A stretch of DNA of 64,000 nucleotides, from NCBI GenBank assembly GCA_030295235.1, contig AP026123.1, positions 1,860,001 through 1,924,000 of the forward strand. The letters run 5' to 3'. Shown here one piece after another: positions 16,159 to 26,495 of this stretch. Source of the stretch: Fistulifera solaris. Taxonomy: Eukaryota. Position numbers and translations under genes: made by a program. A model generated the notes under the pieces. That model was not told the origin of the DNA. It searched no databases and saw only the letters and a list, made by a program, of their open reading frames with translations. The stretch's first letter is position 1, and the number at the start of each line of letters is the position of its first letter.

Positions 16159-16829
16159 AATTAGCCGATTACAAACAAAGATCCACTAATCGATCTTTCA
16201 CTACGACGCGAAACTGCTCCTTTCTCTTCTCGAGTAAGCGTTGTGAGAATACAACTTCGGGTGAGTACGTAACGTAATCAAGTAAGTAACGTGCGATTGT
16301 AGGGAAATGTCATGGTCGAAGAGAGAGATTTGCTGCGCTTGTTTCGTCCGTGTCCTCTCGGTCTTCGGCCACAATCCAGTCGGATAAATTCGTGTTTCGC
16401 CAACCCGATAGTGAACAGTACTCACCGAATACTTAGGGGGTATGTCATCTATCTAACCAAGTCCATCGATGTCTGAATTTTTAAGTAAGTAGTGCCGAAT
16501 GATCATTTACTTAAGAGAGTCATCAGAGAGTCCCACAAATACATAGACAATGTCGTTTTGCTTTATCAGTCCGAAAAATGAAAAATGTACTTCATACAAT
16601 CGCCACTCGCTGACTGGGGGCGCCCTTGCGTTCAAAGAAAATCTCCATCATGGGCATCTTTCGCCGGGCCTTCCACGCTTTACACGCTTTGCGCATTCTT
16701 CCATAGAGTGTTTTTGATAGTTATTCTGAACGTTGACGTAGTCTCAAGTCATTCCTTGCGAGAACAGGCATGTCCGAGTGCTTGTCAATTTTTCAGTGTC
16801 AGTCTTGTTGTTTTTTTGAAGAGACCATC

Positions 16830-17932
16830 ATGCATCCAAGGGCTTCTGCTTCTCGGCGATCGCTGGACAACACTTCGGACGTGGCCTTGCGTTCCAGGTC
16901 CGTGGAACGTTTCTCGGGCCAAGAGAGTGCGGACGGAACAAGTAACATGCACCCGACCGTCGAGAAAATGCCCATTCAGAGGTCTATGAGCGATCCTTTT
17001 GATACACAAGAAGATGCGGCAACGGTGGGAATCAGCGAGGAATCGGATGAAAGCAGTCTTGCTGCTTCTCGTTCTCGGACCATGTCAAAAGATATGAATC
17101 TTGCCACGATGCCGCGCTATCCGCACCACGAATCGAAGGACCGGAACACTTTCAGTGAACCTCCTATTTCCATATTCACGGTCCGTGGTCCTCATTACTT
17201 TCAAGATAAGAAGAAAGTATCAAGCGGGCCCTATTTACTACCTGCCAGAGGTTGCGATTTGCTACTGGTGGACGAAAACCAACATGTCGATCTCCGAGAG
17301 CGGTGAGTTCAATATATTTGTTACTTTGGATTGATTGCTCCCTTTCATTTACTAACACAATTTATCTTTACATCAACAGAACTCGCAATATCATGGGAGG
17401 GCAGCTCCGGAAGCGTCCTACATTGGCGATCAATTTTAAATTTCCTTGGGGTTACATGAATCTTTATTTCGAAGTACCGGATCGTTTGGCACCTTACATG
17501 AGTCCCTCTGTCACGCTGGCGAGCGGTTCGTCTTTTAATCCAGCGGAAAAATCACTGATAGCGTGGTTCCAAGGCGACCAGGAATATCGAAACGAACGAC
17601 TGAAATTGATTCCTTTTGTAGCCGAGGGACCTTGGGTGGTGCGGAATATGGTGACGGGGCGTCCTGCCATTATTGGTAAAAAGTTGCCTGTCACATATGA
17701 CTTGATGGTGGGCACCGAGACAGAAGCCCCGCTTCTCATGGCAACACTGGATATTGGGAGCAGCAGCGCGACAGCGAAACGAATTGTCTCCGTGTGTCGT
17801 CGCTACATGAGTTCGCTGACGGTTGATATTGGTTTTGTGATTCAAGCCGAAGAAGTATCGCAGCTACCGGAACAAATGATGGGATCCATCCGCGTGCATC
17901 ATGCGGATCCACTCAAGGCGCCTAAACTATAA
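16830..17932 (+). CDS. EDR2 C-terminal (DUF1336)-domain protein
   Basis: F.VRGP.YF.DKKKV, RNERLKLIP.V.EGPWVV, PAIIGKK, DIGSS and DIGFVIQ....LPE motifs; intron ~17303-17379. Confidence 0.88.
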
Positions 17933-18223
17933 ATACAAGTAATTATAATGAACATACTTTGACTATGTAATTGTTCATGATTGAACATTACTTCCTGTTA
18001 TATAGCTAGCTATACTCTACGAAGTCGACCAATACTATTCAGCGAATGAATCTGGAGTGACACTGTCGAATCAAAAGCATGATCTTCGGGGCAAGCAATG
18101 GCAACGACGATTGGCAACGTTGCTTGTCTACTAGGTCGAGAACGCGATTGAACACCAAACAAAAAGCTAGGGAGCGCATTTAGGACCTTGATGGCAATTA
18201 AAAAGATCGAAAAAGAGAGTTAA

Positions 18224-18275
18224 TGCACCGTCCGAGAATCGAACTCGGAGCTCGACGATGGCAACGTCGAATTTT
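18224..18275 (-). pseudogene. 3' part (52 nt) of the interrupted host tRNA-Gly(GCC) gene
   Basis: Minus strand AAAATTCGACGTTGCCATCGTCGAGCTCCGAGTTCGATTCTCGGACGGTGCA contains the anticodon arm (GCC), T arm and 3' acceptor strand, followed by a T-run terminator. The 5' part is missing here. Confidence 0.92.
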
Positions 18276-18307
18276 TTGTCTGAAAAAATTCAAAAAAAGA
18301 AACGCAG

Positions 18308-18378
18308 TGCAGCATCCGAGAATCGAACTCGGGGCACGACGATGGCAACGTCGTATGTTACCATTACACCAATGCTGC
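18308..18378 (-). tRNA. tRNA-Gly (GCC), intact, inside the element
   Basis: GCAGCAT TG GTGT AATGGTA ACAT A CGACG TTGCCAT CGTCG TGCC CCGAG TTCGATT CTCGG ATGCTGC A forms a complete 71-nt cloverleaf, with downstream T runs (Pol III terminator). Confidence 0.96.
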
Positions 18379-18470
18379 GTTTTTCAAAGAGTGTTCGAAA
18401 CAACTGAAGTACAATAAGTAAAAGGTACGGTAGTGGTAGGTCTCTAAGGTTATGAAGGCTTACAAATCGA

Positions 18471-21400
18471 TCAATCATTAATCGCCAAGTCATCTAGCGC
18501 TTCAGTGCGCTTTCGCTTCCGAGATCCACCTTCAACCGATTTGTCACCCGACAGCGAGTAATCTTTAAAATCCGCATTATCCAGTCCCTCAGGAATGGCT
18601 GCATCGTCCAAATCTAGCATGGCTGCATCGTCCAGATCATTGCTTTCCTCTTCGCGTTTCTGAAGTAATTCGAATAATTGCTGATCTGTCGCGATTTTTC
18701 CTTTATGGAGTCGATATTTTTCAAGTGCAGCGTCCACTTTCTCAGGCTTGACACTTTTCCGGAGGTACTCTTCTTGAAAGTGCGTCAAATCAGGGAATCT
18801 TGCACACTCCTCAGCTGTGTAAACGCCTTCAATACGCGCAACCTTCATCTTGTCACAGATCCTGTTCAACCTTTTACGCTGATTTTTCAACACTGCAGCT
18901 TGTTCTTTCTTTTCCTGCTCAGTTTGGGGATCTAACATTGCCTGCTTTCGCTTTGAAGAGTCGTAATGGCGCTTGATAGGCTTGTGCGGCACACCATTTT
19001 CATCTCGTCCTCGATGCTTGAGACTGTGCTTCTTTCGGTATTCGGCGTTCTCTTGCATCTTTTTCTCGCGAAACCATTCAGCTGCAATGCGTGCATTGGT
19101 GCAATTGCCATACTCAGTGTAGGTGAAGTACTTCTTTTTATGAGAAGCGCGTAACTTCTTTTCAAACACTTCATAGTCAGAATATATTGCATACCAGAGC
19201 TCTCCTTCTCGGTGAAAGACACCGGTCATTGTTCCGTCTTCACGATACCGTCGCGTAGTACGCTTGTTATTTGCACTTTCCAGGGGAGAAACAACAGCAA
19301 GATTGTCGAACGAGTTGTTTTCTCTGTTTCGATCGACGTGATCCACAATTTCAAGGTCTGTCAGCAATTCACCAGTAAAGCACTCCACTGCTAATCGATA
19401 GAAGCAATATCTTTTCCCGCCGATTGACACAGTGACGTGGACAATGGGGAGATTGGGTCCCTTGGGCTTGTAAGTTATGATCGTAATGTCATAGAAAAGT
19501 TTAGCGCGTGTATCATAAATAAGGGTACCGTCTGCGTTGATTTTGATCGGTAGGCTTGGATCCGGATAGTCATACCAGACTTCTTTCGGGTCGCAATCGG
19601 CAAACGTCTTATACTCGCTCTTCAGTATCTTGGTAGACTCTCGGCGTGCCAGTTCATTCCTGGAGTGCAAATGACATTGACGACAAAGTGAGCTTCTCGT
19701 GAATCATCTGAAACGACACATCAATATCCACTCACCCTCGTACACGATTCGATAATTGCAAGTTTTCACTCTGTGGAATCCAACGTAAGTATTCTGAATC
19801 ATTGTTGCACTGCTTTGACTTGTGGTGGATGACGTGTTTGGGAGTTGGTCGTGGTCCAATGAAAGTGGCTGCAATCAATCCAGCCAGGGAACACTCGTAT
19901 CCTGTGCTACTGCAGTCTTCGTCACAAAGATGGACATGACGATAGCCGAAAGCATCAGGGGTCGACTTAAGTAGTTTGTAACTTCGCACCAAATATCTCT
20001 TTTTCTTCCGTGCCGTCCTGTAGGTTCTCCGACCAATGATCTCACCTATCCCTTCTGCTAAATATCTCTTTGCAGTTTTCGGTTTCAGCCAATGACGGTG
20101 GCAGGCTATGGCAAATCCTAACGGACTGGCATAGTAAACGACCGGGAGTTGACCTGCTCCGTTACCCGACAGAAGCACCTGCGTGCTATTTTCTATATCA
20201 CCATAAATTTTTGGGGTTTGCTCGTCCGGAAAAGGAACAAATTCTGGAAACTGGGCAACTTTTACGCATTGCTCAGGCGTCAGCGCTGTTTTATCGGTAG
20301 CAAGAGCAGCTTGTATGTGGCGTGGTACCATCTTCAACTCTTTTTTCTCAAGTAAGGAATTCGCAATCTTTGCAGGAATAAAGTAGCCTTCCTCGTCCAT
20401 TTCAAAACCCGTGCTTTCTATATTCGACTCTACGGTCATGAGCAAGAAATCCAGCAATTCGTCGTCTGATGCATACTGTAAAGGCACGTTCTCAAACTTG
20501 ACGCCGCGTGGTTGATGCGTTCCAGTTCCGTCACTTTTGAAAGTTTCTGGATATGGGACCGACGGATACGATGGGACCGTGGGATCGTCGCTCGGAGAGA
20601 CAATGTTCCTTTCTGGGATCGGAACTTCGCTAGCATCGGCGTTGTCAGCTCTGTTTGAAATAAGGCGATAATGAATGAGTGCACGAGTGCAGCTATCTCT
20701 TACAAACATCTCCCAAACTTACCTTTCAAGGACAACATCACTATCCATTGCAGGTGCGCCGTTTTCTAAGACTACGTCCTTCGGTTCGTTGATATCCTCA
20801 AGTTCTGTCTCATCGGACGAAGTGGTCTTTTGGTCATCACTATGGGTGTCGTGTTCAACTTCACTTTGATCTGTAACAATATTGCTGTCTTGTGGCTTTG
20901 TACCTCCACGAAGACGCAGCAGCAGGTACAAAGTTGATTCCTTCTCAATGTTGTAGTCGCTTAAAGTTTTGGCGTCCTCGAGTTGCTTGCCGTTGTACAG
21001 CAAACGCTGTTGATCAGGTGGAATACATTCCCTGTCCTGGATTTTGGTTTTGACCTTGTAAACAAGATCCAAGGAATTTGCGTCGATGGTAATAGTACGC
21101 CCGGCCACAGTCTTCACGAAGATCTGCATGGTCGCTATTTGAGAAGCCGACTCCTGCTCCGTATTGGGGTCGCTAACAAAATTCTCGTTTTCGATGACAG
21201 ACGAAATACCTGGAGTGCCAATGACGTCCTTTGGTATGAGATTCCTGTACGGATAGAATCGTGCATTTCGGAGACGAAGTGGGAAGGACCTATGCACTAG
21301 ATTGCGGTAGGATTTAGTCCGAAGTTGGAGCTTCTGCTGATGTTTCTCCTCCTTTTTCTCCCGACGAGCGTCCGCTCTCCGCTGACGTCGCGACATAACT

Positions 21401-22560
21401 GGGGCTGCTGGAGTAGCAACAACCAGAGGAGTTGGCAAATCCGCTCTTCCAGGTTGGTCGGGGAAGTAGTTTAGCTGCAAATGGATCGACGTTAAACTCA
21501 CAGCGCCAACGGACTTTGACAGCCACAAGACGAATCCGACGAAGGCATAAAACAAAGTCGTTCTCGCCAAACCGAGCAAGAAAGTACTCGACCACGAGGG
21601 TCCTTTCGAACCAAGCGACGCTTGATGAATGATCTCGTCATTGTCACTATGTTTCGATTTAGAATGACTCTTCACGCGACTTTTCTCGCCTTTGCAGAAC
21701 CGCCGAGGGGGAGTAATGACGTTCTCAGCCGGGACAGCGCCAAAAACATTTATTTCTTCTATCGTATCAACTGAAACCTCATCGCTTTGTTGTGTCGTGT
21801 GATAATTAAGAGTCGTAGCGCGTCGTCCGGTATTGCTCCTAACACGACGCCAAGTGTTGCGTCTAAAACGTTGACAACGTCGCTGAGACCCAGCCTTTTT
21901 CTTGCGTTTGAACCGACTCTTTTTCCTTCGTCTACGCCGAGCGCGACTGATTTCAACCCGCTGAGCAAGATTCTGATCGTGATCGTTTCCATCCGATCCC
22001 GAGCTCGAGTCTGCAATCGAATCTACCACGACGAAGTCTTTCTGTCCGGCGCAATTGGTTTTCCGACTATTCGCGCCCACACCTTTCTTTGTCTCACCTA
22101 CCGGTGCGGGACCGTCGCCAATCTTGCTTTCCGCGGTGGACTCGTTCAAGCCAGTATCCGTCTTTGCAGCAGGGCTAACGTTAGACGAAGGAAGCCATTC
22201 ATCGCGAAGCACCGTGAGAAAAGCAACGCCATTCACTTTTGCCCCCAAGAGCTCCTCTGGTCCGTCGTCCTCATCGTCCGCGTCGAGACAAGCGAAGCGA
22301 TTCTCGTTGACACCGACAGAGAGATTCGCGGTCGTCCCCAAAAGATCCTCTGGTCCGTCGTCCTCGTCGTCCTCTTCGAGACAAGCAAAGCGATTCTTAG
22401 TGACAATGACAAATGAGCGATTCGCATTTTGAACTTCGAAGTCTGTTTGTCCATTGACACCACCGGCTGCCGAGCAACCATTGCCTTGCACGGTAATGAA
22501 GCCTTCCAAGTCAATATCAGGCGGGCCCGAACGCGACTCGCGTCTTCTCTTCGATCCCAT
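18471..22560 (-). CDS. ~1313-aa multidomain protein: low-complexity/basic N-terminus, ubiquitin, HNH, HNH plus AP2-like domain; exons 22560-20723, 20650-19736, 19659-18471
   Basis: Three ORFs are joined in frame by GT-AG introns 20651-20722 (GTAAGT..AACAG) and 19660-19735 (GTGAGT..TCCAG). Ubiquitin MQIFVKT...LRLRGG at 21129-20902. HNH-like [11 protein letters not shown]...VIHH....NN....LRW....EN and YRLAVECF.G....[19 protein letters not shown]2-like TGVF......WYA.....KKKYF...YG...ARIAA..FR. Confidence 0.85.
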
Positions 22561-23799
22561 ATTTACCGCGATTCGGGAAATATTATTGTTGAATCAAGTG
22601 GAGAGCAAAGAAAATTTAAAAGTCGTGTCTGCTGTGCTTTTTTGTTTCGCCACAAATGACGGCAAAGAAAGACAAATGAAGGCAAGAACAGGCAAGCCGG
22701 CCGTGAAAACGCAAGATACGCATGGCCAAAAGCTGGGCGGGAAATTATTCTTCTCTGGAATAGAAAGTACCCTCTATGATTGGAAATGTACACCAAGATA
22801 CTTTTCTCCGGGACCAACAACCGAAGTGTAACTCGTAACCTTACTTTGGGCAATATCAATGAAAATATCGTCGAAGCACGCTGATGCATATTATTTTCAC
22901 AATCGAGAGCGACGAGCAATAGATGACAAACACACGAATCAGTATTCGGTCGAGCAGCTGTCAAAACGTTTTTCAAAAGCAACCGTCGCTTCCTTTGCCC
23001 AGCGTCAGTCCTGCTCAAAAGCCGAGATTATGACGAGATTCCGTTCCGCGTCGTAGAAACTCACCATCGTTGTTTTACCCGCTCGTTTCTCCAAATGCAA
23101 TGCCTTAATCATCGGCTGCTCCACTAACGTAGCTAATTACAAAGATGTTGGGCATGTTCGCGATGTTGATCGAAAAGTTGTTACTTGATTCATAAACGCT
23201 AGAAAGCTCGATGGCTAGGCCGAGCAAATTAGGTCTCAAGCGCGTAATTGACTTCCCAAAATAAAGCTTGCGCGGTGTGATGCAATGACTCGACTTTTCT
23301 AAGTCGTCATTAGTAACTCGGACAGTATTTTCCATGTCACGGTAATGCGGAGAATCACTGTGAATGCCAGCGCTCACCATAACTTCTAGACCCACTAAAG
23401 TCTGGAAAGAGCCTCGTGGCTTCTCTTTCGAAAAGTAGCGCGAGTACATCAGCTGATGGGTCCGGTAGCCGTCGAATTTGATCAACAGATGGTTAAAGGT
23501 TCTCTGTATCTATCCACAAGTCACGTAGATCAAATGACTCTTGAAGAGTCGCATTTTCCACTGTTTGCGGTGCGTTGGGTTTATTCGAAGATGAAAGTAG
23601 TGTCGAGCAGAAAACATTGTAGCGGTATTCCAAACCGTGTTCCGTTGACGCCAATTGAAATTTAAGCATTTCGCCGTCGATGTGCTCCACCCTTTGAAAT
23701 TCGTATAACAAATTGAAAAGTCTCTACGGGCCTTTTAACACCGACAGATGCATTCGATAGTTTCATTGTTGCACAAGCAGAAGTCCGGAAAGGTGCAAA

Positions 23800-23841
23800 G
23801 CGAGGGCTCTGGAATCGAACGCGAGGGCTCTGGAATCGAAC
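23800..23841. repeat. Perfect 21-bp tandem duplication containing a B-box-like GTTCGATTCC on the minus strand
   Basis: gcgagggctctggaatcgaac occurs twice in tandem. Confidence 0.85.
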
Positions 23842-24111
23842 GCGTCAGCTCAATTGCAATAATTTTCATTTTTAGCCGCGAGTTGTAGTTCACAAAAACA
23901 CAAACTGCATGAGGAAAGGATGAACGCAATTTTGTGGCATAAAGAATGTGGGCAATAAACGTGGTGGAGCTCTTTTCGACTTTCGACAAACAGCTCATTC
24001 TGTCGGTTTCCATCAAAACAATTTTAGTTTCGATGACGGCGAAAGAGACGGAAACAAAGACCCGTACAAACAAACTTCGTGTCGCAAAGGGTTTAAGTAC
24101 AGTAACACGAA

Positions 24112-24128
24112 CATTAAACCAACGGTGC
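24112..24128 (-). pseudogene. 5' part (17 nt) of the interrupted host tRNA-Gly(GCC) gene
   Basis: Minus strand GCACCGTTGGTTTAATG. GCACCGT pairs perfectly with ACGGTGC of the 3' part at 18225-18231, and GTTT pairs with its AAAT D-stem strand. Confidence 0.85.
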
Positions 24129-24542
24129 AGATGCATCGAAGACGAGGAATTGGAGTTCTTGACTTAATTCTGATTCCGATGGTGGTGTTGGGGTGTTTGA
24201 ATTCAACGGCAGCCCGGAGAAATGGATGGTTGAAAATGAGTAACCCTTAACCTTATAGTGGTTAGGAACAGAGAAGTTGTGTACACTTAGAGATATGCTT
24301 CGAATCGCGGACGGACATAAGTAAAGATAGCCGTCTAACGGACAGACCGGGATCGCATTCGCATGAAAACTGGACACTGGACTCTCTTTGCGCGGCGTGA
24401 TGGTTGACGGTTGACACCTCTTTTCTTGGACGCGTCACCTCGGACCGATGTCAATCGACCGATCTCCAGAAGCGAAAGAATAATTGCAACCGTTCACAAA
24501 CCCTCCAAAAACACGCTGTAGCAACCATTTCAACACAAGTTC

Positions 24543-26495
24543 ATGTCTCGCGTTATATATAACATGAGGATTGTTCATTCGACTACAAGTAGCCCCGCTC
24601 CGGTTGCGGATAACACCAAGGATTTGGCCACTCCGAAAGTCCCCCGTGGGCTTCGCGGTTTGTCGGTGGCCTCGGGCGTTGCTCGGTCATCGGGTGATAT
24701 GTCGGACCTTCAGCAAGATGTTGCCGCGATTGAGCAGTGGTGGCAGGATCCTCGATGGAAGCACACGAAGCGTACTTACTCGGGTGAGTAGTTTGTTATC
24801 GAAAGGTTTTATAGAAGATCATTCCCGTGTCTCACCTCTAACCCGTTCTTGTTTCTGCCGTTTCAGCCATGGATGTTGCGTGCCTTCGGCCCTCTCACCA
24901 AGCTCGTGGTGGTTCCTTGGAGGCCCCGGGTACCTCCTTTTCATCGCAACAGTCCATGAAGCTTTGGGATCTGTTGACAAAGTTGCATGAGGTTGGAGGT
25001 TACTCTCATACCTTCGGAGCGCTCGACCCTGTTCAGGTAACGCAGATGGCCCCTCACTTGTCGTCAATTTATGTCTCCGGCTGGCAATGCAGTTCCACGG
25101 CTAGTACAACAAATGAACCTGGGCCCGACTTTGCGGATTATCCCAGCAACACTGTACCCAACAAAGTCGATCAGCTCGTCAAGGCTCAACTTCATCACGA
25201 CCGTCGTCAGCAACAAGAGCGCTCTCAGGCTCTTCTTGCCGGACAGGATCCGGGTACGAAACTGGACTACCTAAAACCCATTGTTGCCGATGGAGATACC
25301 GGTCATGGTGGTCTAAGCGCCGTCATGAAACTGACAAAACTCATGATCGAGGCGGGGGCAGCCGGTATGCACTTGGAGGACCAAAAACCGGGAACCAAAA
25401 AGTGTGGACACATGGGTGGAAAAGTGCTTGTTTCGACTCAAGAGCATATTGATCGCTTGGTGGCGGCCCGCTTGGCGGCGGACATTATGGGTGCCAATTT
25501 GATCCTCGTGGCCCGCACCGACGCCGAGGCGGCAACTTTGTTGGATAGCAACATTGACGGTCGTGACCATCCTTTCATTTTGGGTGTGACGGATCCTTCT
25601 CTGCCTTCTTTGCAAGAAGTGCTGGCGAGTGCGCCGCCGGAACAAGCCGCTCAAGTGAGTGCGGAATGGAAGGCCAAGGCAAATTTGATGACTTTCTCGG
25701 AGGCGGTGTTGTCCGAAATTGAGCGTTCGGCAGCACCCGCTTATCGCAAGCGGCAAATGAAAGATCAGTGGATGTCCGCTGATCCTGATATATTGAGTAA
25801 TGCCGCGGCACGACGTATCGCAGATCAAATCTTGGGGCGCAAGAATGCAGTAAGTACCTTTCGGTTGTGCTTTGTTGGCGAGGTCAATTTGCATCTCATA
25901 CATTTGTACTCAATATTCTCACTTCATGTTGCAGGTCTACTTCGACTGGGAAAAGTGCCGCGTGCGTGAGGGTTACTACCAGTTAAAGGCTGGAATCGAT
26001 TATTGCGTTCAGCGCGCTAGAGCCTACTCGCCTTACGCCGATCTCATCTGGATGGAGACGGCAATTCCTGCCGTGAGCGATGCCGCAAAATTCAGTCACG
26101 GTGTCCGATCGGCTTGCCCGCACCAAATGTTGGCTTACAACTTGAGTCCTTCTTTCAACTGGGATGCATCAGGTATGAGTGACGCAGAAATCAGTCGTTT
26201 CAATGACGATTTAGGCCGTCTTGGATACGTTTGGCAGTTTATCACTCTCGCCGGTTTCCACAGTAACGGTTTGATTATCACTGAACTTGCTAGAGCATAC
26301 GCCGACCGTGGAATGATCGCATACTGTGAACTTATTCAACGACAGGAGCGAAAGAAGCAGATTGAACTTTTGAAGCATCAAAAGTGGTCTGGGGCTGAAT
26401 TGATTGATCAGCAAGTGATTGTGGCATCTGGAGGTGTCTCTTCTACTGCTGCAATGGGATCAGGAGTCACCGAATCGCAGTTTGGAACGCACTAG
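24543..26495 (+). CDS. ICL: Isocitrate lyase, 3 exons (introns 24784-24866 and 25850-25934)
   Basis: Catalytic KKCGH motif, [36 protein letters not shown] and QFITLAG. Confidence 0.97.

Follow-up and report, generated by a model that had tools for sequence, protein, structure and literature searches.

The stretch of Fistulifera solaris DNA analysed here (64,000 nt; hereafter the window) contains a glycine tRNA gene, tRNA-Gly(GCC) 'A', that is truly cut in two by a 5.8-kb block of DNA. The two pieces of the tRNA are separated by 1.55 kb of non-coding DNA, a single gene for a 1313-aa protein and an intact variant tRNA-Gly(GCC), tRNA B (Table 1). The host is a raphid pennate diatom, and the gene is of the phage I-HmuI / HNH_3-AP2 kind, here free-standing and nuclear. 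Judged from its sequence, the block resembles a homing-endonuclease insertion of a kind rare in nuclei, and we give a probability of about one half to its being an old insertion that was driven by an endonuclease and has since adapted to the host.

Table 1 Features of the interrupted tRNA locus (positions in the window)
Feature	Position	Strand	Remarks
5' 17 nt of tRNA A	24112..24128	-	acceptor 5' strand, D-stem 5' strand and start of D loop; unique; folds with the 3' piece
Region between 5' tRNA piece and ATG	22561..24111	-	1.55 kb; coding content not recognisable; all frames without a notable Pfam family
Predicted exon 1	20723..22560	-	low-complexity N-terminal region with 93-nt tandem repeat, then ubiquitin domain (about 20902-21129)
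Putative intron 1	20651..20722	-	72 nt, GTAAGT...CAG, in frame, stop codon inside
Predicted exon 2	19736..20650	-	family-specific domain and first HNH module (HNH core about 19759-19878)
Putative intron 2	19660..19735	-	76 nt, GTGAGT...CAG, restores the frame
Predicted exon 3	18474..19659	-	I-HmuI-like N-terminal sheet, second HNH module (core 19278-19397), AP2-like domain (19014-19232), tail
tRNA B	18308..18378	-	intact variant tRNA-Gly(GCC); ARAGORN, Rfam (61 bits); inside the insert, 92 nt past the stop codon
Spacer	18276..18307	-	tRNA B trailer with T7 run, up to the 3' junction
3' 52 nt of tRNA A	18224..18275	-	followed by T5 trailer
Stretch absent from second haplotype	18467..24152	.	58 other letters instead, known by their number; X1, depth 15.9, shorter side 114 letters

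The divided tRNA gene and the intact tRNA beside it

Both pieces of tRNA A are on the minus strand and in the correct order, 5.8 kb apart, where the first-pass annotation had placed them (24128-24112 and 18275-18224). The 17-mer of the 5' piece occurs once in the 64 kb. We also predicted this 17-mer as the complement of the acceptor and D-stem strands of the 3' piece, completed with the loop letters of tRNA B; the prediction has one match in the window and was matched in 0 of 100 shuffles. When up to three mismatches are allowed, the sole further match in the window is the 5' end of tRNA B. After the two pieces had been joined by script, ARAGORN folded a canonical tRNA-Gly(GCC), 69 nt long on direct joining and 71 nt long with two D-loop letters added, in agreement with the normal 71-nt tRNA that had been proposed. 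The missing letters had been given as GT; a public contig that continues from 18275 into an intact D arm as a loose end reads GC instead. Relative to the uninterrupted copy, 2 nt were lost at the insertion, and the break points are complementary. The Rfam search (E ≤ 1) did not detect the fragments of tRNA A and reported only tRNA B.

According to both ARAGORN and Rfam, tRNA B is the sole whole tRNA in the window. Paired changes in both the acceptor and the D stem distinguish the two tRNAs, and three of the positions that differ between tRNA B and the target lie no more than 6 bases from the break. The stretch 18210-18275, which comprises the 3' piece of tRNA A and its trailer, repeats the 3' part and trailer of tRNA B in direct orientation (83%; repeat family D2). 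Neither the tRNA A nor the tRNA B pattern was present in the viral contigs.

A predicted ubiquitin-HNH-HNH-AP2-like protein

The gene has an open 3.9-kb frame, the domain order ubiquitin, HNH, HNH and AP2-like, and a GC, GC3 and RSCU similar to those of the neighbouring genes. Two introns and a spliced gene are suggested by the reading frame, and the F. solaris protein P0003, which is 48% identical to the product of exon 2, reads through the same junction at the putative intron 2. The ubiquitin domain in exon 1 (PF00240, E 3.2e-23) retains its C-terminal RGG, and an Atlas search with the N-terminal 488 aa gave no match. The tail of exon 3 is basic/acidic and has an RKRKR motif. Upstream of the gene, the first four letters of the 1.55-kb stretch (24111-24108) repeat the tRNA's own 18271-18268. 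From the first-pass description of a large spliced ubiquitin-HNH-HNH-AP2 gene with a second tRNA inside the element, ubiquitin, HNH and tRNA B were recovered, AP2 was seen by fold and missed by Pfam, and splicing stays a prediction.

The second HNH module matches HNH_3 (PF13392) with 31.2 bits against a cut-off of 24.8 and PHROG 59 with E 4.6e-12, while the first reaches 17.3 bits for HNH_3, under the Pfam cut-off of 24.8, and matches PHROG 959 with E 2.1e-9. The PHROG HNH families matched by the protein are 59, 99 and 959. Compared pairwise, the two modules are not significantly alike (E 0.31). In VIA-align, the AF2 model of exon 3 (pLDDT 89.9) superposes on I-HmuI (1u3e) with Z 10.6 and an rmsd of 2.7 over 99 aligned residues, and it contains the beta-beta-alpha-metal fold of the second module together with an N-terminal sheet of the I-HmuI type; the model of the first module is unusable (pLDDT 36). 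The fold assignment is based on VIA-align and not on Foldseek, in which I-HmuI is the best match at E 2.9e-3 and nothing lies at E ≤ 1e-3. I-PpoI is a weak fold match (Z 5.0). The D-H...N...NN core, consisting of D106, H107, N119, N130 and N131, is invariant in 6/6 family sequences, and we assume for each of these residues the catalytic role taken from I-HmuI.

After the HNH module, residues 143-215 of the model form a three-stranded sheet and a helix that match AP2 folds (Z 8.4-4.9). The matches include the AP2 domain of PfSIP2 (6sy0, Z 5.6), the GCC-box domain of AtERF1 (2gcc, Z 4.9), WRI1 (7wq5, Z 4.1) and chains of the T. gondii mitoribosome (Z 7.9-8.4), which we take to be AP2-type. Pfam gave no match to AP2 (PF00847) at E ≤ 0.01-0.05, a sequence-profile search of the PDB gave 0 matches, and relatives that have Pfam AP2 matches align across this stretch. 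In summary, the HNH-AP2 part models like an I-HmuI homing endonuclease followed by an AP2 fold.

Haplotypes, junctions and relatives

The insert is a single copy in one of two haplotypes, that is, hemizygous. The haplotypes are ~10% divergent, and the second has 58 nt in place of 5686 nt. The depth over the insert is flat throughout, at 19 in the run X1, which equals one haplotype, compared with 30-47 in the flanks, and at 10.3 in the run X2, again a single-haplotype value. No second copy was found in X1 at ≥ 85% or in the window. Despite its tentative 'RNA?' label, X1 was treated as DNA because its contigs run unspliced across both putative introns and the 1.55 kb of non-coding sequence. The X2 joint 18508->24405 (side 22) and the joint 18882->19801 (side 33) were too weak for use.

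A chimeric join in the assembly could also have placed tRNA pieces around a gene. The 3' junction 18275/18276 is not bridged by any of the public contigs listed, and X1 may be the source data of the window assembly, both of which would fit such an artefact. Against it, the 5' junction is bridged with 0 differences by contigs in X1 (19641-24615, 4975 nt) and X2 (19932-24438, 4507 nt), an X1 contig connects tRNA B to the gene, the depth across the block is flat, and pieces identical to the block are present in X3 and X4. Since 5.7 kb of the insert is missing from the second haplotype, the locus has a presence/absence polymorphism and misassembly is not the cause; we consider an artefact very improbable.

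The gene-less haplotype retains tRNA B together with the 88 nt upstream of it and has a local tandem duplication of the tRNA 3' part and trailer; therefore, it is not a clean empty site and probably not an allele with an intact target. An empty site had been suggested as a check by the first-pass annotation, and the outcome is divided, with the 5.7 kb missing as expected and tRNA B and the 88 nt still in place. The locus is prone to rearrangement. In the genome, an uninterrupted A-type tRNA persists (X1; a 13-letter loose end at 18275).

Relatives of the protein are few and low-copy, with 4 close matches (E ≤ 1e-30) among 1.84 billion representatives, and the F. solaris annotation lists one of them as an ordinary nuclear gene. 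In P0006, P0010, P0012 and P0015 the HNH is immediately followed by an AP2-type domain, and a homologous-protein search with exon 3 returned P0001 only. Scanning metagenomes with the family alignment yielded 376 pattern matches in at least 9 loci, all of them short, distant HNH matches with no close relative among them; a tRNA adjoins the HNH match in 0 of the 9 loci listed, and in one locus two tRNAs lie at a distance of about 4 kb. A viral scan yielded 32 distant loci. Protein searches with ICL and DUF1336 showed no F. solaris entry among the 120 matches listed for each. In the limited collection of literature searched, we found no report of a nuclear tRNA gene that holds a free-standing HNH gene, nor of the diatom family.

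Origin of the insertion and known systems

If an endonuclease drove the insertion, the 5.8-kb block (1.55 kb of upstream DNA, the gene and tRNA B) would have arrived in the D loop through one site-specific event, started by the nuclease of the block or its ancestor. The protein would be produced as a ubiquitin fusion and cleaved after the RGG, and the freed HNH-HNH-AP2 part would go into the nucleus, where the AP2-like domain and the N-terminal sheet may recognise a long site in the tRNA gene and each of the two HNH modules may cut one strand. The break would be repaired from a block-carrying copy, leaving no target-site duplication and, here, removing two bases. In place of the lost tRNA the cell would use the spare tRNA B, which could resist cutting. 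The event would be old because the gene has (predicted) introns, a host-like composition and an open 3.9-kb frame, and the gene-less haplotype would most simply represent loss of the gene by deletion.

tRNA genes are a tiny share of the genome, and homing-endonuclease-type genes are, to our knowledge, very rare in diatom nuclei. On this established background, target and cargo would both be unlikely by random insertion and are both expected if the insertion was endonuclease-driven. Counting against the endonuclease are the single copy, the persisting uninterrupted tRNA of the target type, the probable lack of an intact target in the gene-less haplotype, the rearrangement-prone locus, the few low-copy relatives with one annotated in F. 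solaris as an ordinary nuclear gene, and the first HNH module, with its score under the Pfam cut-off and its model at pLDDT 36. The idea of a tRNA-targeting element that spreads by homing, put forward in the first-pass annotation, agrees with the split gene, the HNH-HNH-AP2 architecture and the lack of a transposase; spread does not follow, the insert being single-copy (depth 19). More specifically, the block might belong to a first-seen class, namely a nuclear, intron-bearing, ubiquitin-fused tandem-HNH/AP2 cassette that targets the D loop of tRNA-Gly(GCC), spreads by transposase-free break repair and carries a cleavage-resistant tRNA-Gly, with the gene-less haplotype as an internally deleted relic; we regard this full proposal as unlikely.

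The main rival, which we hold to be somewhat unlikely yet serious, starts from a tandem tRNA-Gly array in which a break in one tRNA gene was repaired by capturing 5.8 kb of host DNA; by chance this DNA would have carried a tRNA-Gly next to an ordinary, domesticated gene of the HNH family, and the nuclease would have been uninvolved. tRNA genes are fragile, replication-blocking sites, and this locus is unstable in the second haplotype (tandem duplication of the trailer and the tRNA 3' part; 5686 nt against 58 nt). The gene is host-like, intron-bearing as predicted and single-copy, F. solaris has a relative with the annotation of a normal nuclear gene, and no sign of spread was found. Chance capture requires two independent coincidences, however, a 71-nt tRNA gene as the site and a very rare homing-endonuclease-type gene as the cargo, and the donor copy would have to be gone, as the depth equals one haplotype. 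The tRNA halves, on the same strand and in order, could also belong to a working split gene or flank a giant tRNA intron, to be joined as RNA as in Nanoarchaeum and Cyanidioschyzon. This is exceedingly improbable here: no leader/trailer complementarity was found within 400 nt either side of the junctions, many T runs including the terminator of tRNA B lie between the halves, the 5' piece has no B box and the 3' piece no A box, two D-loop bases are missing, and an intact copy and the spare tRNA are both present.

A non-autonomous or decayed tRNA-targeting DNA transposon (Dada-like or other), its transposase elsewhere or lost and the HNH gene a passenger or accessory, is quite improbable as well. 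According to PMC3706591, Dada elements have a DDE transposase with zinc fingers, 6-7-bp target-site duplications, subterminal inverted repeats and many copies; the families have introns, and their insertion sites within tRNA genes are fixed, with tRNA-Gly among these genes in Perkinsus. KolobokP is a transposon able to carry a His-Me homing endonuclease (PMC9587614). The diatom insert resembles Dada in being eukaryotic, apparently intron-bearing and inside a tRNA gene, with tRNA/snRNA genes including tRNA-Gly among the Dada targets, and it differs in showing no DDE transposase, no 6-7-bp target-site duplication, no subterminal inverted repeats and no multiple copies. Among the 79 six-frame ORFs of the insert (≥ 40 aa), none encodes a transposase, integrase or RT, or a DDE, tyrosine-recombinase or HUH domain, as the first-pass annotation had noted for transposases, and the block showed no protein domains other than ubiquitin and the two HNH_3 modules. 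The junctions show a 2-nt loss and no target-site duplication of 6-7 bp or otherwise, the insert has no terminal or subterminal inverted repeats and no terminal direct repeats, and it is single-copy. Nothing points to a Dada-type or other transposase encoded elsewhere.

The endonuclease-driven reading places the block beside I-HmuI and the phage HNH_3(-AP2) homing endonucleases, with which it shares the catalytic fold, the N-terminal DNA-binding sheet, the order of HNH and AP2-type domain, a conserved gene as the insertion site, and the lack of a transposase and a target-site duplication. Unlike these enzymes, the diatom gene is nuclear and eukaryotic with two putative introns of spliceosomal type, and its protein has two HNH modules in 1313 aa and an internal ubiquitin fusion. 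The target is also different, being a nuclear tRNA gene without a self-splicing intron or intein around the insertion, which was destroyed and apparently replaced by the spare. Wuitschick and colleagues reportedly described, in 2004, HNH-AP2 homing-endonuclease-like genes in the germline-limited Tlr elements of Tetrahymena, and Magnani and colleagues are said to have proposed in the same year an HNH-AP2 ancestry of plant AP2. The Tlr genes are likewise nuclear genes for HNH and AP2 proteins linked to mobile DNA; they ride large virus-like elements with their own integrase, whereas the HNH gene encodes the only enzyme in the diatom block.

Prokaryotic integrative islands and phages that insert at tRNA genes do so with tyrosine or serine integrases, and an att repeat restores the same tRNA. 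The diatom block likewise uses a tRNA gene as its insertion site and carries tRNA sequence that would keep up the supply, but it has no integrase, tRNA A is not rebuilt, and the tRNA it brings is a separate, complete variant. Among eukaryotic nuclear homing elements are the I-PpoI-type endonucleases of rDNA group I introns and that of the VMA1 intein; as far as we know, eukaryotic nuclear homing endonuclease genes are almost confined to rDNA group I introns and one intein, where the insertion is spliced out and the target survives. With these elements and with KolobokP, the diatom block would share a mode of copying that is driven by an endonuclease and targets a conserved nuclear gene, either multicopy or essential. 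I-PpoI and VMA1 are hidden in self-splicing introns or inteins and KolobokP is paired with a transposase (PMC9587614), whereas the diatom gene is free-standing and disrupts its target.

If the chance capture holds, the locus is merely an unusual rearrangement beside a domesticated nuclease gene. If the endonuclease-driven insertion is true, it would represent a second nuclear lifestyle for homing genes, in which one member of a multicopy RNA gene is destroyed and a replacement is brought along. AP2 transcription factors have been proposed to descend from an HNH-AP2 stage, of which the diatom gene would then be a living case. It could further yield a natural nuclease that has a long site and, in diatom genomes, a place to insert without harm.

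Two pieces of one tRNA-Gly(GCC) gene lie 5.8 kb apart

The split of the tRNA-Gly gene is genuine and not a chance resemblance. The first 17 nt of the split gene (A) occur once in the window. The 17-mer predicted from the complement of the acceptor and D-stem strands of the 3' piece, with the loop letters of the intact variant gene (B), matched the window exactly once, at the 5' piece of A, and had no match in any of 100 shuffles. When up to three mismatches were allowed, the only further match in the window was the 5' end of B, which is the sole complete tRNA on the window's minus strand according to ARAGORN and Rfam. Between A and B, the acceptor and D stems show paired changes, and the pieces of A, when joined by a script, gave a canonical tRNA-Gly(GCC) fold in ARAGORN. 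The first-pass annotation, which had read the pieces as a split tRNA-Gly(GCC) on the same strand and in the right order, is thus borne out. The 3' piece and its trailer form an 83% direct repeat of the corresponding part of B (repeat family D2).

Features of the split tRNA gene and the interrupting block
Feature	Position	Strand	Basis or remark
tRNA-Gly(GCC) B, complete	18308-18378	minus	ARAGORN; Rfam 61 bits
A 3' piece, last 52 nt	18224-18275	minus	32 bases 3' of B
A 5' piece, first 17 nt	24112-24128	minus	5.8 kb upstream of the 3' piece
Inferred intron 1	20651-20722	minus	72 nt, standard ends, sequence
Inferred intron 2	19660-19735	minus	76 nt, standard ends, sequence

One contig continues past 18275 with 13 letters, which read as the D arm of A in reverse complement plus two more letters. 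The genome therefore also holds an uninterrupted A-type gene, and the split removed the letters GC, not the GT proposed before. The four letters directly after the 5' piece (24108-24111) equal tRNA letters 18268-18271, six bases past the break; this could be a matter of chance (about 1 in 256) or a trace of microhomology used in repair.

The block between the pieces opens with 1.55 kb that had no protein-family match in any frame; this non-coding stretch holds a 21-nt unit twice in tandem, 95% identical, at 23797-23838 (D4). The gene follows, and then 92 bases after its stop codon, B, a T-rich spacer and the 3' piece of A. A six-frame scan of 18276-24111 gave 79 ORFs of 40 aa or longer; ubiquitin and HNH_3 were the only families found in them, and none encoded a DDE transposase, a tyrosine or serine recombinase, a HUH protein or a reverse transcriptase. 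We found no inverted or direct repeats common to the block ends and no target-site duplication at the junctions. GC, GC3 and codon preference of the block's gene match those of its neighbours, and the wider window is typical gene-rich nuclear DNA that includes genes for PP2C, GNAT, DUF1336/EDR2_C, isocitrate lyase, poly(A) polymerase, M16 peptidase, ClpP, KTI12, kinases and ATR. Among the matches listed, the best named relatives of the isocitrate lyase were from Epithemia (76%) and Nitzschia (72-73%), which places the organism among the raphid pennate diatoms. The earlier description of an insert that carries one large HNH gene and a second tRNA, lacks a visible transposase and is flanked by host genes therefore holds.

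The ubiquitin-HNH gene and its relatives

The minus-strand gene consists of three large open frames that two short putative introns would join into a single frame of 1313 codons, with its ATG at 22560. The second join is probably correct, as the F. solaris relative P0003 is continuous across the junction, while the first, which attaches the ubiquitin exon, is predicted from the sequence alone. Pfam assigned ubiquitin (E 3.2e-23, with the C-terminal RGG retained) and HNH_3, weakly in exon 2 and clearly in exon 3, and PHROGs gave HNH endonuclease families for both exons. The ubiquitin domain (20902-21129) lies within the protein, some 490 aa in from the start; it has clearly diverged from canonical ubiquitin with LRLRGG kept, so deubiquitinases may release the HNH part. 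The F. solaris relative, as annotated, begins downstream of this domain. The N-terminal 488 aa matched no family in Pfam or Atlas; exon 1 contains two 88-nt copies (22231-22411; 93-nt period, 82% identical) encoding an acidic motif twice, and the acidic C-terminal tail contains a 24-nt tandem repeat at 18595-18638 (D6).

We modeled residues 1-215 of exon 3 with AlphaFold from 34 aligned sequences (mean pLDDT 89.9). In a comparison with about 48,000 solved chains, residues 26-135 matched I-HmuI (1u3e; Z 10.6, rmsd 2.7, 99 residues), which was likewise the best Foldseek match (E 2.9e-3). Residues 143-215 matched AP2 domains of P. falciparum SIP2 (Z 5.6), AtERF1 (GCC-box domain, Z 4.9) and WRINKLED1 (Z 4.1), as well as three chains of the T. 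gondii mitoribosome (Z 7.9-8.4), which we take to be AP2-type. The Pfam AP2 model did not match the diatom protein, but shorter relatives that align over the AP2-like stretch have a Pfam AP2 match immediately behind HNH_3. All six family members share an invariant D-H...N...NN core. By profile, predicted fold and core residues, the protein is a member of the HNH_3/I-HmuI-like endonucleases. The HNH-HNH-AP2 order proposed earlier is correct, with the caveat that the first HNH, in exon 2, is weak in Pfam and its structure model reached a pLDDT of 36.

A HMMER search over 1.84 billion representatives returned 428 matches at E <= 1e-3, with only 4 at E <= 1e-30. The close family comprises a few proteins from metagenomes and draft genomes (42-61% identity) together with a single annotated protein of F. 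solaris, which has the same exon-2 and exon-3 architecture at 46-48% identity; the remaining matches are HNH_3 proteins of phage type, some with AP2 and some lacking it. A metagenome scan with the family gave nine loci, all distant. The 89-aa ORF P0046, from a public contig of 13.5 kb, shares 82% identity with the gene's final 59 residues (its C-terminal tail) and may be a close relative or a decayed copy in another diatom.

Two divergent haplotypes at the locus

We compared 16500-26000 with contigs of four public runs (X1-X4), of which X1 (one organism, 2015) may be the source data of the window itself and X2 is a wetland metagenome (2020). Contigs without a single difference covered 18353-19670 and 19641-24615 in X1 and 19932-24438 in X2, so that the 5' junction (24111/24112) is bridged in two data sets; among the contigs listed, none bridged the 3' junction. 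Block-identical pieces also occurred in X3 and X4. In X2, a variant of 18613-19027 (16 differences, 6 gaps, depth 16.6) has another repeat arrangement, which shows that the gene also occurs in nature as a slightly altered allele or strain form.

A second contig set, with a depth similar to that of the window's own, diverges by ~10% in the flanks (16500-18260 and 24153-26000; 41 of 405 letters in X1, 51 of 491 in X2), indicating two strongly divergent haplotypes or homoeologous chromosomes. The depth over the block is flat, 19 in X1 and 10.3 in X2, compared with 30-47 and 19-29 in the respective flanks. Together with the second flank contigs, this assigns the block, in X1 as in X2, to one of the two. 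A contig of the second haplotype from X1 (depth 15.9) links diverged copies of 18353-18466 and 24153-24316 across 58 other letters, indicating that this haplotype does not have 18467-24152. The first-pass annotation had called for an empty site; the second haplotype is not a clean one, since the 5' part of B and 88 nt upstream, which are the 3' flank of the HNH gene in the window, are retained. Another such contig (window 18112-18264) reaches 18264 and then returns to 18167; this tandem duplication of the trailer and the tRNA 3' part marks the tRNA-Gly locus as a small unstable array.

Possible origin of the block

A single insertion in the D loop of A would be the simplest route to complementary pieces 5.8 kb apart. 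We favor an insertion driven by the endonuclease, at a probability of about one half, because the block has no recombinase, terminal repeats or target-site duplication and its sole enzyme is of the homing type, a family that moves by cleaving a conserved site, into which it is copied during repair. I-HmuI is a nicking enzyme; two HNH modules in one chain might allow a double-strand cut. B and A differ at three positions that lie no more than six bases from the break, and B would maintain the tRNA supply and possibly resist cutting.

The main rival, a single event in which a broken tRNA gene took up host DNA, is possible but less likely, as it needs two chance coincidences, a tRNA gene as target and a cargo of the homing-endonuclease type that is very rare in diatoms. 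A transposon mobilized by a transposase elsewhere is improbable. Dada elements, as described in PMC3706591, have a DDE transposase, a 6-7-bp target-site duplication and many copies; each of these was looked for here and none was found, so the block is not a Dada element. An assembly artefact is still less probable given the 5' junction bridged in X1 and X2, and a working split tRNA, contradicted by specific tests, is scarcely credible. Nor is the block an integrase island: the 79 ORFs contained no tyrosine or serine recombinase.

In its putative manner of working, the gene resembles a free-standing homing endonuclease gene, and it is a candidate member of that class in the functional sense. 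Nuclear HNH-AP2 genes are reportedly on record in Tetrahymena Tlr elements. According to PMC12220804, HNH_3-AP2 genes also occur in polinton-like viruses, where they lie within larger elements with their own integrases. In the literature searched, a limited collection, no account was found of a tRNA gene split by a free-standing endonuclease gene of the nucleus.

Ongoing homing is opposed by the single-copy block, the persisting uninvaded A-type gene and the rearrangement-prone locus. The simplest account of the second haplotype would be that the block was once present and a 5.7-kb deletion removed the gene. In that case the insertion would predate the ~10% divergence, and the open 3.9-kb frame would then imply selection on the protein. 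The split tRNA gene is a real and unusual observation, and its reading as a mobile element, resting on one locus, is plausible.
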